The notes under the pieces: generated by a model
Told to the model about the DNA's origin: nothing
Database searches by the model: none
Seen by the model: only the letters and a program-made list of their open reading frames with translations
Made by a program: the position numbers and the translations under genes
Shown: one piece after another, positions 2,062 through 6,976 of the stretch
Layout: the number at the start of each line of letters is the position of its first letter
How positions within the stretch are numbered: position 1 is the stretch's first letter
Source: a virus
Taxonomy: Duplodnaviria; Heunggongvirae; Uroviricota; Caudoviricetes
Direction: 5' to 3' (one strand)
Length of the DNA: 7,686 bases
Virus record (IMG/VR): IMGVR_UViG_2740892258_000007

Positions 2062-3123
2062 ATGAAAAACACTGTAAAAATAAACAGTATTGATTTAATC
2101 AACGCTGATTGCCTGCATTTTATTCAGTCCCTGCCTGATGATTCCATTGACCTGATTGTTACCGATCCGCCTTACTTCAAGGTGAAACCCAACGGTTGGG
2201 ACAATCAGTGGAAAGGGGACGAAGATTACCTTAAGTGGCTGGACCACTGTCTGGCCCAGTTCTGGCGGGTGTTGAAACCTGCCGGAAGCCTTTACCTGTT
2301 CTGTGGGCATCGCCTGGCATCTGATATTGAGATCATGATGCGTGAACGTTTCAACGTGCTTAACCATATCATCTGGGCGAAGCCGTCCGGACGTTGGAAT
2401 GGGTGTAATAAAGAAAGTCTGCGCGCATATTTTCCTGCCACAGAGCGCGTTCTGTTTGCTGAACATTACCGGGGGCCATATCGCGGCAAAAGTGACGGCT
2501 ATGTGGCAAAAGAAAGGGAACTCAAACAGCACATAATGGCACCGCTGATATCGTATTTCAGGGATGCTCGTGCCGAACTGGGTATAACGGCAAAACAAAT
2601 TGCCGAAGCCACAGGTAAGAAAAATATGGTTTCCCACTGGTTTGGTGCCAGTCAGTGGCAGTTGCCGAATGAGGCTGACTACCGGAAGTTACAGGCACTG
2701 TTTTCCCGTATAGCGGCAGAGAAGTTTCAGGAACAACAACTGGAACAACCACACCACCAGTTGGTGGCATCTTATGATTCACTGAATCGCAAATATTCTG
2801 AATTGCTGGATGAGTTTAAATCTCTCCGGCGCTATTTCTCCGTATCAGTCTCCGTGCCTTATACCGATGTCTGGATGCATAAACCCGTTCAGTTCTACCC
2901 GGGTAAACATCCGTGTGAGAAACCGGCGGATATGCTCAGGCAAATAATCAATGCCAGTAGTCGACCCGGCGATCTGGTTGCTGATTTCTTTATGGGATCC
3001 GGTTCCACAATAAAAGCAGCAATGGCGCTGGGGCGTCGGGCGTTAGGTGTTGAGCTTGAGACAGAGCGGTTTAATCAGACCATCCAGGAAATCAGTATGT
3101 TATCAGCAAATACAATTTTGTGA
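2062..3123 (+). CDS. Orphan DNA methyltransferase, beta-class N6-adenine/N4-cytosine family (DPPY motif, probably N6-adenine), 353 aa
   Basis: Motif IV DPPY near the N-terminus (LIVTDPPYF) and AdoMet motif I near the C-terminus (DFFMGSGST), the circular permutation typical of beta-class enzymes. No restriction endonuclease partner in the window. Weak SD. Confidence 0.85.
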   Translation: MKNTVKINSIDLINADCLHFIQSLPDDSIDLIVTDPPYFKVKPNGWDNQWKGDEDYLKWLDHCLAQFWRVLKPAGSLYLFCGHRLASDIEIMMRERFNVLNHIIWAKPSGRWNGCNKESLRAYFPATERVLFAEHYRGPYRGKSDGYVAKERELKQHIMAPLISYFRDARAELGITAKQIAEATGKKNMVSHWFGASQWQLPNEADYRKLQALFSRIAAEKFQEQQLEQPHHQLVASYDSLNRKYSELLDEFKSLRRYFSVSVSVPYTDVWMHKPVQFYPGKHPCEKPADMLRQIINASSRPGDLVADFFMGSGSTIKAAMALGRRALGVELETERFNQTIQEISMLSANTIL

Positions 3124-3404: not shown

Positions 3405-3565
3405 ACAACGAATCCTTCTGATCTGCTTTTGCGGGGCTTTTTTGTATCCGCTCCATGCCCGGCGTATAAGCGGAGGTTGGTCAGTTTTCTAAAAATTGAA
3501 ATACCTCACAATTCAGCCAGTTAATGGTTGTTTGTCTGGCGAAGAGTTTGTAAATAAAAAAACGC

Positions 3566-3720
3566 ATGGTGAATCCCCCTAAGCGGCGGGGCGAATCAGC
3601 AGTCAGTTCTGGGATAATCGCGGGTTCGTATGCTGATGCCGGACTCACCGGGAGGCACCCGGCACCATGCATCATGGTCATCCCCTTGTATGATACCCCT
3701 CTCCGGAGGGGTATTTTTTG
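3566..3720 (+). ncRNA. Candidate structured small RNA (~155 nt) ending at an intrinsic terminator
   Basis: GC-rich block with no credible ORF. Long-range closing stem gcatggtg (3564-3571) / caccatgc (3665-3672); internal hairpin ccggg-aggca-cccgg; terminator with 9-bp stem atacccctc (3693-3701) / gaggggtat (3706-3714) plus T5. Weak promoter candidate upstream (-35 TTGTCT 3532-3537, -10 TAAAAA 3555-3560). Confidence 0.3.
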
Positions 3721-3721
3721 G

Positions 3722-3790
3722 ATAAAAAAGCCCGCGCTGGGAGGCACGGGCGGCAAGGAATAAAACGTGAAGAAATTTTCACAGGCGCAT
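3722..3790 (-). ncRNA. Candidate short minus-strand transcript (~60 nt) with its own intrinsic terminator
   Basis: On the minus strand: -35 TTGCAA, 18-bp spacer, -10 TATTAT (reverse complement of about 3786-3820), then hairpin gtgaa/ttcac (3776-3791), then terminator hairpin gcccg...cgggc (3730-3754) followed by 6 U (forward A-run 3724-3729). It lies back-to-back with the plus-strand terminator at 3693-3720. Confidence 0.25.
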
Positions 3791-4043: not shown

Positions 4044-4151
4044 TATGGTTCTTCATGAAATAAGAATGTTACGCGGTATTTTTAATGAAAATGATAATTA
4101 TTGTCAATTGGTTGTGCGTATTTTTTCATACATGACTGGTAAAGGTGATTC

Positions 4152-4187
4152 AGGCCATCAGAGTTTTGCTGATGGCCTTTTTTCTTT
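4152..4187 (+). terminator. Intrinsic terminator about 30 nt upstream of the pinholin start
   Basis: 10-bp stem aggccatcag (4152-4161) / ctgatggcct (4169-4178), loop agttttg, T-run 4178-4183. Confidence 0.55.
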
Positions 4188-4216: not shown

Positions 4217-4432
4217 ATGTATCAGATGGAAAAAATATCAACAGGCATTGCCTACGGCACCTCCGCAGGCAGTGCTGGCTACTGGTTTTTACAATGGCTT
4301 GATCAGGTTAGTCCGTCTCAGTGGGCTGCGATTGGTGTACTGGGAAGTCTGGTTCTGGGCTTTCTGACTTATCTGACGAATCTGTACTTCAAAATCAGAG
4401 AAGACAGAAGAAAGGCTGCGAGAGGAGAGTAA
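4217..4432 (+). CDS. S: Pinholin, phage 21 S21 family (71 aa, dual-start MYQMEK)
   Basis: Translation [71 protein letters not shown] is near-identical to S21 as I recall it. Two transmembrane domains, charged C-terminus, Met1/Met4 dual start. The longer listed ORF 4145-4432 is an upstream extension across the terminator hairpin and is not the real start. Confidence 0.85.
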
Positions 4433-4436
4433 TATA

Positions 4437-4781
4437 ATGGTCCAAAACTATGAAATGATTGTGAAAGGGATCCGCAATTTTGAGAATAAAGTTACGGTAA
4501 CTTTAGCATTACAGGACAAAGAACGCTTTGACGGTGAAATTTTTGACCTGGACATCTCGCTGGACCGTGTTGAAGGTGCCGCGCTGGAGTTTTATGAGGC
4601 AGCAGCCAGAAGGAGCATCAGACAGGTCTTCCTGGATGTTGCTGCCGGGTTATGTGGAGGGGATGAGCAGTCGCCGGAAAAGCGCCCCATAATTTTAGAG
4701 GCGCAGAGTGTGTGGATAACCTACAAAGGAAAACTGCCGGGAAGAATTACTGGTTCACTGAAGACTCCGCCGAAATGGTAA
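4437..4781 (+). CDS. orfA, hypothetical 114-aa acidic soluble protein in the slot normally occupied by the endolysin
   Basis: SD GAGGAGAG inside the 3' end of S, 7 nt before ATG 4437, so translationally coupled to the pinholin. A second copy (5356-5612) differs at about 12 nt with only 3 amino-acid changes, indicating purifying selection. No family recognised. Confidence 0.6.
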   Translation: MVQNYEMIVKGIRNFENKVTVTLALQDKERFDGEIFDLDISLDRVEGAALEFYEAAARRSIRQVFLDVAAGLCGGDEQSPEKRPIILEAQSVWITYKGKLPGRITGSLKTPPKW

Positions 4782-5019
4782 TTTCACCAGCATATTTTTC
4801 CTCCAGTAATACCGCCAGCCACTTGAAAGAATTTTGTTGTTGCTGGGACCATTTGGGATTGATTGATTCAAGCTGGAGCGATGCCAGTGTTGGTTGCATT
4901 TGTTCCTTGGGAATTGAGAATGCCAGATATGAAAATGCGACAGCAAGGGCATTTACATCATCCCGAAGCCTGGAAATGCAGTCGAGCAACTCCTGTAGAG
5001 AAATGGTGCTATTGTCCAT
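4747..5019 (-). CDS. orfB, hypothetical 90-aa protein, convergent with and 3'-overlapping orfA by 35 bp
   Basis: Minus-strand ATG at 5019-5017 preceded by AGAGAGGA with 7-nt spacing; an intact paralogue with the same RBS at 5578-5850. Helical-looking N-terminus (MDNSTISLQELLDCISRLRDDVNAL). The ORF track's 92-aa version starts at an upstream TTG; ATG is preferred. Confidence 0.45.
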   Translation of the reverse strand: MDNSTISLQELLDCISRLRDDVNALAVAFSYLAFSIPKEQMQPTLASLQLESINPKWSQQQQNSFKWLAVLLEEKYAGEITISAESSVNQ

Positions 5020-5124
5020 AAACAATCCTCTCTATTGTATTTAACTATTCCTTGCCTGATTCAACAGGCCGGGACAGATAAACATATCCAGGGTTCAGAA
5101 ACCGATAAATCCTGATAAATATCC

Positions 5125-5355
5125 ATGAACGCAAAAATCAGATACAGCCTGTCGGCTACTGTACTAGTGCTGATTGGTGCAGGCGCGTCTGCTCCTCAAA
5201 TACTTGACCAGTTTCTGGACGAAAAAGAAGGTAACCACACAACGGCATACCGTGATGGTTCCGGCATCTGGACCATCTGTCGGGGTGCCACGATGGTGGA
5301 TGGAAAACCCGTTTTTCCCGGTATGAAACTGTCGAAGGAAAAATGCGACCAGGTC
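5125..5355 (+). pseudogene. Endolysin 5' fragment R' (first 77 codons: SAR domain and E-D-T catalytic region), then out of frame into the orfA copy
   Basis: Codons 1-77 match the R N-terminus (5 amino-acid differences); after KCDQV the frame runs into orfA-derived sequence, giving a 55-aa junk tail and a stop at 5521-5523. Confidence 0.75.
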
Positions 5356-5612
5356 GCTTTGACGGTGAAATTTTTGACCTGGACATCTCGCTGGACCGTG
5401 TTGAAGGTGCTGCGCTGGAGTTTTATGAGGCAGCGGCCAGAAGGAGCATCAGACAGGTCTTCCTGGATGTCGCTGCCGGGTTATGTGAAGGGGATGAGCA
5501 GTCGCCGGAAAAGCGCCCCGTAATTTTAGAGGCGCAGAATGTATGGATAACCTACAAAGGAAAGCTACCGGGAAGGATTACTGGTTCCCTGAAGACTCCG
5601 CCGAAATGGTAG
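5343..5612 (+). CDS. orfA second copy, lacking the first 29 codons; possible re-initiation at a fortuitous ATG 5343 (AAGGA 5 nt upstream, within the R' fragment)
   Basis: In-frame homolog of orfA residues 30-114 with 3 amino-acid changes (G to E, I to V, S to N) and about 8 synonymous changes. Whether it is expressed is unknown. Confidence 0.35.
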   Translation: MRPGRFDGEIFDLDISLDRVEGAALEFYEAAARRSIRQVFLDVAAGLCEGDEQSPEKRPVILEAQNVWITYKGKLPGRITGSLKTPPKW

Positions 5613-6186
5613 TTTTGCCAGCATAATTTTCTTCCAGCAATGCCGCCAGCCACTTGAAAGAATTTTGTTGTTCCTGGGACCATTTGGGGTTGCGTGATTC
5701 AAAATGAATGGATGCCAGCGTTGGCAGCATTTGCTCCCTGGGAATTGATAAGGCCAGATGTGAAAATGCAACAGTGAGGGCATTTACATCATCCCGAAGC
5801 CTGGAAATGCAGTCGAGCAACTCCTGTAGAGAAATGGTGCTATTGTCCATAAATAATCCTCTTGATTGTCTTTACCTTTTCCCCGCCTGATTCAACAGGC
5901 CGGGACAGATAAACATATCCAGGGTTCAGAAACCGATAAATCCTGATAAATATCCATGAACGCAAAAATCAAATACGGCCTGTCAGCTGCAGTTCTGGCG
6001 CTGATTGGAGCAGGCGCATCAGCTCCTCAGATACTTGACCAGTTTCTGGATGAAAAAGAGGGTAACCACACTACGGCATACCGCGATGGTTCCGGCAACT
6101 GGACCATCTGTCGGGGGGCCACGATGGTGGATGGAAAACCCGTTTTTCCCGGTATGAAACTGTCGAAGGAAAAATGCGACCAGGTC
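5356..6186. repeat. Tandem duplication, copy 2 (831 bp)
   Basis: See copy 1; ends inside the intact endolysin gene at codon 77. Confidence 0.85.
5578..5850 (-). CDS. orfB second copy (90 aa), about 15 amino-acid differences from copy 1, concentrated in the middle and C-terminal half
   Basis: Intact ORF with conserved RBS AGAGGA and ATG at 5850-5848; N-terminal 25 residues identical to copy 1. Confidence 0.45.
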   Translation of the reverse strand: MDNSTISLQELLDCISRLRDDVNALTVAFSHLALSIPREQMLPTLASIHFESRNPKWSQEQQNSFKWLAALLEENYAGKTTISAESSGNQ

Positions 6187-6489
6187 AACGCCATTGAGCG
6201 TGATAAGGCGCTGGCATGGGTGGAGAAAAACATCAAAGTGCCATTGAGCGAACCCCAGAAAGCGGGGATCGCGTCATTCTGTCCGTACAACATTGGTCCC
6301 GGTAAGTGTTTCCCGTCGACGTTTTATAAACGAATTAATGCAGGTGATCGCAGGGGAGCGTGTGAGGCGATTCGCTGGTGGATTAAGGACGGTGGCAGAG
6401 ACTGCCGTATTCGTTCAAACAACTGCTACGGTCAGGTATCCCGTCGTGACCAGGAGAGCGCGCTGGCGTGCTGGGGTATCGACAGATAA
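5956..6489 (+). CDS. R: SAR endolysin (phage lysozyme with N-terminal signal-anchor-release domain), 177 aa
   Basis: Weakly hydrophobic Gly/Ala-rich N-terminus LSAAVLALIGAGASAP; catalytic triad spacing E-x8-D-x5-T in EGNHTTAYRDGSGNWT. Pinholin plus SAR endolysin is the established phage 21-type pairing. No SD before the ATG. Confidence 0.85.
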   Translation: MNAKIKYGLSAAVLALIGAGASAPQILDQFLDEKEGNHTTAYRDGSGNWTICRGATMVDGKPVFPGMKLSKEKCDQVNAIERDKALAWVEKNIKVPLSEPQKAGIASFCPYNIGPGKCFPSTFYKRINAGDRRGACEAIRWWIKDGGRDCRIRSNNCYGQVSRRDQESALACWGIDR

Positions 6490-6787: not shown

Positions 6788-6976
6788 ATGAACCGCGTAC
6801 TGTGCGTGGTCATCATTGCCCTGCTGGTGGCCTGTGGTGCGCTTAGTCTGGGGCTGAATCATTACCGTGATAACGCCATTACCTACAAAGCCCAGCGCGA
6901 CAAAAATGTCAGAGAACTGAAGCTGGCGAACGCGGCAATTACTGACATGCAGATGCGTCAGCGTGGAATGAAATAA
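6788..6976 (+). pseudogene. Rz: Truncated i-spanin Rz (62 codons; lambda-type Rz is about 150 aa); no embedded Rz1
   Basis: [59 protein letters not shown] closely matches the lambda Rz N-terminus as recalled, then diverges to GMK-stop. Downstream frames show no Rz or Rz1-like continuation. Confidence 0.7.

Follow-up and report, generated by a model that had tools for sequence, protein, structure and literature searches.

A probable composite junction between a divergent small gene and an SD-less SAR endolysin in a lambdoid prophage of Escherichia coli

Lysis cassettes of the phage 21 S-R type encode a holin of the Phage_holin_2_1 family and a SAR lysozyme in one late operon, and the SD that serves the endolysin gene R is located in the 3' end of the holin gene. 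The Qin prophage of Escherichia coli K-12 carries the arrangement essQ-ydfR-rrrQ, which comprises members of the pinholin, DUF1327 and SAR endolysin families. In this prophage, ydfR (1640054-1640365) and rrrQ (1639524-1640057) overlap by 4 nt as ATGA, and the sequence CATAAATATCTATGA is part of the ydfR coding sequence (its 3' end). Lambdoid operons can also contain morons (e.g., bor and lom in lambda, and the morons of HK97), which are self-contained transcription units inserted between operon genes. Concerning the start of translation, SD pairing is dispensable for start-site choice in E. coli, and initiation is favoured when the sequence preceding the start codon is A-rich (Saito, Green and Buskirk 2020, PMC7043885). 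A literature search gave nothing on genes located between S and R and, among the matches listed, nothing on the function of YdfR/DUF1327.

Here, we analyse a stretch of 7,686 nt (the window) that represents the late region of an E. coli prophage, lambdoid and DLP12/Qin-like. It shares ~98% identity, over 95% of its length, with the DLP12-position prophage of extraintestinal E. coli (e.g., IHE3034). Our interest was in the non-coding gap that separates a small minus-strand gene, orfB, from the SAR endolysin. The explanation that we favour, to which we give a probability of about 0.6, is that this gap is a composite mosaic junction within a pinholin/SAR endolysin cassette, made of an SD-less R leader and the start signals of an orfB insertion.

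Lysis cassette, tandem repeat and related loci

Genes follow each other in the order Q, methylase, pinholin, orfA (YdfR/DUF1327), orfB on the minus strand, and SAR endolysin. The RefSeq annotation of relatives has the identical order, given as class II holin, YdfR family protein, minus-strand hypothetical protein and lysozyme. From this gene order, R would be transcribed as part of the Q-dependent late operon. The features of the window are the following:

99-851: antiterminator Q
Between Q and the DNA methyltransferase: two small ORFs
2062-3123: DNA methyltransferase
4217-4432: phage-21-type pinholin
4437-4781, plus strand: orfA, YdfR/DUF1327 family
4747-5019 (second copy 5578-5850), minus strand: orfB, 90 aa, phrog_2411 (PHROG of unknown function)
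5020-5124: intergenic gap, copy 1, from orfB to R'; 100% identical to the gap in the free-living phage Chlobot
5125-5523, plus strand: R', truncated SAR endolysin
5851-5955: intergenic gap, copy 2, preceding intact R; the same as copy 1 from 5885 on and as E. coli MS20654 throughout
5956-6489, plus strand: R, intact SAR endolysin (Phage_lysozyme, 177 aa)
5081-5124 (copy 2: 5912-5955), plus strand: 44-nt R leader block, which holds both GATAAAT repeats and travels with R
4524-6185: gapless tandem repeat of 831-nt period (4524-5354 and 5355-6185), with 64 mismatches (92.3% identical)

The first-pass annotation had correctly placed the starts of orfB (ATG at 5019, minus strand) and of the endolysin (ATG at 5125) 105 nt apart, on the two sides of the gap 5020-5124. 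An endolysin ORF does begin at 5125, but it is a truncated copy: it retains ~76 R codons and, beyond the repeat junction near 5354/5355, continues through orfA-derived DNA in another frame. The intact copy begins at 5956. Likewise, the 85 nt described as identical upstream of both endolysin copies turned out to be a tract at 5054-5140 made of 71 nt before the ATG and 16 nt of coding sequence. Within the gap, the two copies mismatch at 5044, 5047, 5052 and 5053.

Copy 2 of the repeat matches the resident lineage (E. coli MS20654) at 99.0% identity, and copy 1 is 92.9% identical to that same lineage and 96.3% to phage Chlobot. Judged by these comparisons, the two copies stem from two prophage lineages and there was no fresh duplication, so that the match between their leaders would reflect conservation across the whole family and no constraint specific to this genome. 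We found the duplication junction neither in 5,426 complete E. coli genomes nor in IMG/VR.

In complete E. coli genomes, ~12,500 places match the cassette. We compared ~240 related loci in three sets: 79 loci, one genome per species, collected with an endolysin probe; 80 viral contigs collected with an orfB probe; and 80 viral contigs collected with an endolysin probe. Because these samples were picked by similarity to orfB or R, sampling accounts for part of the low diversity near those genes. The DNA upstream of R is highly varied. In the Qin type, ydfR overlaps R by ATGA, as in K-12; in a second type, YdfR is followed by a spacer of 50, 55 or 63 nt; in a third, a non-DUF1327 protein of 185-209 aa is followed by 36-65 nt; and in the cargo type, YdfR or an extended YdfR is followed by one of at least eight divergent ORFs, orfB included. 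These cargo ORFs start 104-130 nt from the R ATG and have dissimilar N-termini, and the two that were checked against orfB had no BLASTP or Pfam match to it. Upstream homology to the window leader is nested by architecture, extending over ~12, 14-17, 23, 44 or at least 71 nt. The 44-nt block is common to at least ten other architectures with unrelated upstream genes; it adjoins at least seven other divergent ORFs besides orfB, and it is also present in two loci (L171 and L174) that carry a co-directional YdfR alone, without a divergent gene.

orfB and the leftward promoter candidates

orfB looks like a real gene. Its ORF is intact in 46 of 49 distinct sequences, down to ~70% identity, and in the diverged lineages the plus-strand mirror ORF is interrupted; the dN/dS between the two window copies is ~0.3. 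An orphan, orfB is nearly confined to Escherichia and Shigella. Its 3' end shares 35 nt with orfA, with no terminator found downstream. The protein is predicted to fold as a three-helix bundle (pLDDT 82), which had no significant structural match in the PDB (best E 2.5), and its sequence had no Pfam, NCBIfam or PADLOC match. Family and defence searches with both orfA and orfB retrieved only DUF1327 and PHROGs of unknown function.

As orfB is oriented opposite to R within the late operon, it would need its own promoter. The signals that we considered on this side of the gap are these:

5026-5032, minus strand: orfB SD GAGAGGA, 6 nt from the ATG at 5019; duplex -6.4 kcal/mol
5034-5064 (copy 2: 5865-5895, with -10 GACAAT), minus strand: candidate orfB promoter P1, TTGAAT-19 nt-TACAAT
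5054-5069 (copy 2: 5885-5900): small palindrome GCCTG-ATTCAA-CAGGC, whose loop is the -35 of P1
5081-5109 (copy 2: 5912-5940), minus strand: candidate promoter P2 within the conserved R leader, TTTATC-17 nt-TATGTT

Sites were scored with a sigma-70 weight matrix built from approximate hexamer frequencies, and the promoter scores are therefore approximate as well. With this matrix, P1 scored 11.0, which places it in the top 0.01% of window positions and among the ~7 best sites. Its TTG and ACAAT are invariant in copy 1, in copy 2/MS20654 and in a third lineage (L157), and the spacer length of 19 nt is kept across these three diverged lineages, among which the spacer sequence itself differs at 8-10 positions. 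This 19-nt spacer is unusual, and the orfB leader that P1 implies would be only ~8-12 nt long. A stricter consensus scan returned no promoter in the gap, passing neither P1 nor P2. The palindrome around the -35 of P1 is not an intrinsic terminator, since no T-run follows it on either strand, and a terminator scan detected none in 5020-5124. We infer that P1 is the promoter of orfB; a moron would be expected to bring such transcription signals with it. The left half of the gap (5020 to ~5076) would then be orfB insertion DNA that contributes the orfB SD and this leftward sigma-70-like promoter.

A different assignment of the leftward promoter, which we consider unlikely though deserving of some weight, would make the 44-nt block two-stranded, serving as R leader on one strand and carrying on the other a shared promoter, P2, that drives whichever divergent cargo lies to its left. 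The -35 of P2, TTTATC, is the first GATAAAT repeat read on the minus strand; the A/T-rich second repeat would lie upstream of it, and a stem-loop would form near the 5' end of the mRNA. P2 scored 8.9 (top 0.04% of window positions), which is not significant alone; such a score is expected by chance ~0.3-0.5 times in 105 nt, as estimated from the score counts. Still, of 10 cargo-bearing architectures, 7 had P2 as their best leftward site; their cargo seems unrelated, and in most of them the cargo-specific DNA offers nothing better. A hairpin was predicted ~8-15 nt downstream of TATGTT in eight of the nine cargo-bearing architectures that we folded, and two leader types without cargo (L176 and L165) have lost TATGTT or lack the block altogether. 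Against this, conservation of the hexamers is uninformative because the whole block is conserved, and the cargo-bearing architectures share it by descent, so that they are not independent observations. Moreover, the block is intact in the two YdfR-only loci, where there is no leftward gene to drive, and in the phage-86 type a hairpin between block and cargo, followed by TTTTT on the minus strand, would terminate the transcript before it reached the cargo. The chance expectation, the occurrence of the block without a leftward gene, and this hairpin with its T-run are the reasons why we keep P2 as a minority possibility only. If the shared-promoter idea were true, it would offer prophages a simple way to express newly acquired genes.

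The endolysin leader

On the other side of the composite junction, the right half of the gap (~5081-5124) would represent the 5' leader and the translation initiation region that belong to the endolysin itself, A/U-rich and almost unstructured. In addition to the 44-nt block itself, it contains or borders three elements:

5113-5124 (copy 2: 5944-5955), plus strand: translation initiation core TGATAAATATCC
5104-5120, plus strand: pair of GATAAAT direct repeats with a spacing of 10 nt, forming a local 10-nt duplication within the R leader
5077-5083, plus strand: GATAAAC, at the left edge of the conserved leader; absent (..TTTAAC..) in phage-86-type and YdfR-only leaders

The endolysin indeed lacks an SD, as noticed at first pass. 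The best duplex of its upstream 20 nt with the 16S 3' end has an energy of +0.6 kcal/mol, weaker than ~93% of random 20-mers of the window (median -2.8), and the SD duplexes of the other window genes range from -2.4 to -9.5 kcal/mol. The latter value corresponds to orfA, whose SD, GAGGAGAG, lies inside the 3' end of the holin gene. The last 20 nt before the endolysin ATG are 75% A+T, the MFE of the region from -30 to +30 is -1.6 kcal/mol for intact R and -3.2 for R', and the early codons of R are A-rich (AAC GCA AAA ATC AAA). Single-sequence folds compared with shuffled controls were significant on neither strand (z -1.65 and -1.73). RNAalifold applied to 11 leader variants predicted only a 5-bp hairpin (-3.35 kcal/mol) with 0 compensatory changes; in rows 5-10 of that alignment the commonest R 5' sequence replaced that of the locus itself over the 31 nt following the ATG, which leaves the result unaffected because all predicted pairs are upstream of the ATG. 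Rfam had no match in the gap when the whole window was searched (maximum E-value 1), and in a permissive scan of 4950-5200 the best hit reached 13 bits against a gathering score of 70. From the sequence, we infer both the promoter assignment proposed above and the initiation mechanism at this gap, namely that ribosomes initiate on R independently of an SD, at an open, A-rich site. Phage Chlobot, which was isolated as a free phage, has the exact 105-nt gap and the identical gene order, so an SD-less R is presumably sufficient for lysis. For annotation purposes, the endolysin start at the ATG adjoining the leader would be correct despite the missing SD.

Two other sources of control or expression were tried and rejected. 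Pairing of the R leader with small RNAs (the STnc100 and SgrS-like elements of the window) was no better than that of shuffled leaders (p 0.15 and 0.10, respectively), and we found nothing in the literature on an sRNA at the R leader site. A rightward promoter producing a leaderless R mRNA was also discarded, as plus-strand sites scored at most 7.6 and their geometry puts no start at A5125.

The core TGATAAATATCC, that is, the last 12 nt of the gap, precedes the endolysin almost unchanged in most Escherichia-clade architectures. All Escherichia-clade R genes are SD-less, have an AT-rich ATATNY end (ATATC[C/T] or ATATAC) before the ATG, and begin with ATGA(A/G)C...AAAATCA. Over 55 distinct sequences from several architectures, diversity was 0.058 at positions -12 to -1 and 0.249 at third positions of R codons 11-100. 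In two loci (L003/L175) the leader has been replaced by GAATATTTAATATATCC, once more SD-less and A/T-rich, which argues for selection on the kind of sequence. By these comparisons, clear constraint exists only in the core adjoining the ATG; for the conservation from -44 to -13, a role in translation is no better an explanation than shared descent or a function on the minus strand.

This distribution of constraint bears on another alternative, improbable in our opinion, according to which the gap would be only spacer, its identity being due to recent shared ancestry and the frequent recombination of E. coli prophages, and would act as a homology patch at a mosaic boundary. The first-pass annotation had stressed perfect conservation amid diverged flanks. 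An identical run of 87 nt does exist, but it is the longest of four long ones in the 831-nt repeat (56, 77, 87 and 68 nt), and when the 64 mismatches were placed at random, 4% of permutations gave a run of at least 87 nt, so that within this genome its significance is borderline (P = 0.04) and the three other runs of 56-77 nt agree with a spacer. In the orfB-selected set, 9 of 71 sites of the proximal gap are variable, which is not clearly below the 38 of 238 in orfB (the difference is unlikely to be significant), and the nested end-points of homology are typical of recombination junctions. Nonetheless, a mere spacer fits poorly with a core kept despite unrelated DNA further upstream and ~4 times less diverse than R third positions, or with a replacement leader that has the same character, and viable phages must translate R from this start.

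The composite-junction reading accommodates the lack of an SD through the history of the cassette. The 3' end of the holin gene would carry an SD for whichever gene comes next, and in distant relatives this gene is R: in loci of Citrobacter, Enterobacter and Kosakonia, R directly follows the holin gene, whose last codons contain a GGGGTGA or GGAGG SD, and in one further locus (L080) the SD of R is likewise embedded in the holin 3' end. Where ydfR intervenes between the two genes, as in K-12 Qin, it would take the holin SD and R would be coupled to ydfR through ATGA. Further DNA inserted between ydfR and R would remove this coupling, whereas the R leader would move with the R gene whatever lies upstream. 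In the window, orfB separates ydfR from R, and R would therefore keep only the SD-less junction. SAR endolysins without a ribosome-binding site would thus be a legacy of ydfR coupling and, earlier, of an SD inside the holin gene.

We looked for remains of such coupling. An upstream ORF coupled to R was rejected: the frame that ends at the ATGA TGA is open only from 5060 and contains no ATG, GTG or TTG, and orfA ends 343 nt upstream of the R' start. As no canonical-start ORF ends at the ATGA, coupling to R has been lost in the window. We also considered whether the YdfR-only leader derives from ydfR codons, but give this no more than a remark: the 50-nt spacer (L171/L174) is in frame with the ATGA stop, an agreement expected by chance in 1 of 3 cases, and the 55- and 63-nt spacers of other types are not. 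A TTG-initiated ORF of 26 codons (5035-5115) is present in R's frame, with no SD and no independent support.

A bolder view of the 44-nt block, quite improbable as we see it, is that it may constitute a portable two-strand adaptor at a hot spot of moron insertion, its top strand ensuring SD-independent initiation of R and its bottom strand supplying one promoter to at least seven unrelated cargo genes. The block also places a stop codon in each of the three frames no more than 20 nt from the ATG (TAA at 5106, TGA-TAA at 5113-5118 and TGA at 5126), and thus ribosomes arriving from any upstream gene would terminate beside the start. If this were true, new cargo could be expressed from the prophage without bringing a promoter of its own.

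With regard to the GATAAA motifs, their positions had been given exactly: GATAAAC at 5077-5083 and GATAAAT at 5104-5110 and 5114-5120, all three again at +831. Across the window, GATAAAY occurs 9 times versus 2.4 expected, a count reached in 0 of 200 shuffles, and six of these nine occurrences are one triplet counted twice. GATAAAC sits 27 nt upstream of the first GATAAAT, and a regular phasing of the repeated motif is present. The proximal pair is a local 10-nt direct repeat, GATAAATCCT / GATAAATATCC, and only the proximal half-repeat ATAAATATC occurs in most architectures. A 23-nt piece with both GATAAAT repeats is unchanged in a Shigella flexneri locus (L005) and in an IMG/VR contig (L225), neither of which has orfB or a DUF1327 gene; since the repeats are kept there, and the block is kept in YdfR-only loci, they belong to the endolysin module and not to orfB or orfA. 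In our favoured reading they would be a local 10-nt duplication inside the leader. The proposal of the first-pass annotation, that the phased GATAAA(T/C) motifs are operators or RNA-binding sites through which the product of orfA (YdfR) or orfB controls the endolysin, is very improbable: although three copies of a 7-mer lie within 44 nt, the two nearest to the start codon being separated by one helical turn, the leader is conserved and the motif is over-represented in the window, the repeats persist unchanged without either gene and beside at least seven other cargo genes, the distal GATAAAC and the first GATAAAT are missing from several functional-looking architectures (L004/L165, Qin and L003), the few leader variants within the orfB family (L101, L141 and L142) fall inside the repeats, no DNA-binding fold or family match was found for orfB, and no RNA family or covarying structure was detected. 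The repeats should consequently not be annotated as an operator. The broader label of control region is fair in so far as the bases before the ATG are constrained and the gap very probably holds the start signals of orfB; the specific control by orfA or orfB that it had implied is unsupported.

Comparison with known systems

The gap is a fresh example of already known kinds of elements. Its composite origin would explain the missing ribosome-binding site in a family of SAR endolysins widespread in E. coli and Stx phages, which matters modestly, and it identifies the slot between ydfR and R as a recurrent landing site for cargo genes on the opposite strand.

The left half of the gap is best compared with the morons of lambdoid phages. 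Like these, orfB is small and narrowly distributed, lies on the opposite strand in a late operon and has its own SD and a promoter-like site, and its slot is occupied by at least seven other unrelated genes in other prophages; it differs in that no terminator was found downstream. The right half agrees with the initiation sites described by Saito, Green and Buskirk 2020 (PMC7043885) in the absence of anti-SD pairing, the A-rich upstream sequence and early codons, and the minimal structure at R. What they describe is a genome-wide tendency.

The closest described cassette is that of K-12 Qin, which shares with the window the pinholin, DUF1327 and SAR endolysin families as well as the SD-less ...ATAAATATC[T/C]ATGA... 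at the endolysin start. In Qin, the bases before R are the last ydfR codons, stop and start overlap, and the genes are translationally coupled; in the window, by contrast, orfB and 105 nt of non-coding DNA lie between ydfR and R. The phage 21-type S-R cassette has the same holin family and SAR lysozyme in one late operon, but there the SD in the holin 3' end serves R, whereas in the window it serves orfA and R has none.

Opposite-strand genes between ydfR and the endolysin

The slot between ydfR (orfA, encoding a DUF1327 protein) and the leader preceding the endolysin gene R is, from comparison of related loci, a recurrent landing site for genes encoded on the opposite strand. Besides orfB, a 90-aa ORF (window 4747-5019), it harbours at least seven other opposite-strand ORFs of 86-210 aa in related loci (L012, L172, L177, L179, L210, L223, L230 and L242, in the region ~100-130 nt upstream of R). 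Their N-termini are dissimilar and none of those checked contained a Pfam domain; the start codons of all slot ORFs lie 104-130 nt away from that of R. In the window, orfA and orfB are convergent, with 3' ends overlapping by 35 nt (4747-4781), and a scan of the window detected no terminator-like site for orfB on the minus strand.

The R leader carries stop codons in all three frames (window 5106-5128), at most 20 nt from the start:

5106, TAA
5113-5118, TGA-TAA
5126, TGA overlapping the ATG

Since we estimate the probability of three-frame stops arising by chance in a sequence with 75% A+T at ~0.1, this arrangement may be without meaning.

Small RNA-like elements upstream of the holin

Two matches to Rfam small RNA families were found between the methyltransferase and holin genes:

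3535-3723, + strand, strong full-length match to the sRNA STnc100 (114.5 bits, E 3e-25)
4087-4183, + strand, SgrS-like match, sub-threshold (24.8 bits versus a gathering score of 37)

The first is bounded at its 3' limit by a terminator-like hairpin (3692-3715) and, because it lies downstream of the antiterminator gene Q, may correspond to a short late-promoter-proximal transcript of the prophage. A good terminator-like hairpin (4152-4178), with a T-run behind it, closes the SgrS-like match, which lies directly 5' of the holin start and could be either a prophage sRNA or the late terminator.

The tandem repeat and the state of the lysis cassette

The endolysin region contains a long tandem repeat:

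4524-6185, tandem repeat with a period of 831 nt

Copy 2 shares 99.0% identity with the resident prophage lineage, whereas copy 1 is nearer to a different one (96.3% with phage Chlobot versus 92.9% with the resident). This discordance suggests that the repeat contains a fragment imported from a second prophage rather than one duplicated in place. Alternatively, the repeat may be an assembly artefact; its junction was absent from all other genomes searched (5,426 complete E. coli genomes and IMG/VR).

The truncated endolysin copy R' (5125-5523, + strand) retains the N-terminal SAR membrane segment, ~76 R codons and an intact leader, such that a membrane-targeted fragment could be made from the late transcript. 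The Rz spanin gene (6788-6976, + strand) ends after ~60 of the 153 codons of the reference RzpD of E. coli MS20654, and the window's ORF list holds no counterpart of the iss/bor lipoprotein gene annotated at this position in that strain. The lysis cassette is thus probably defective.
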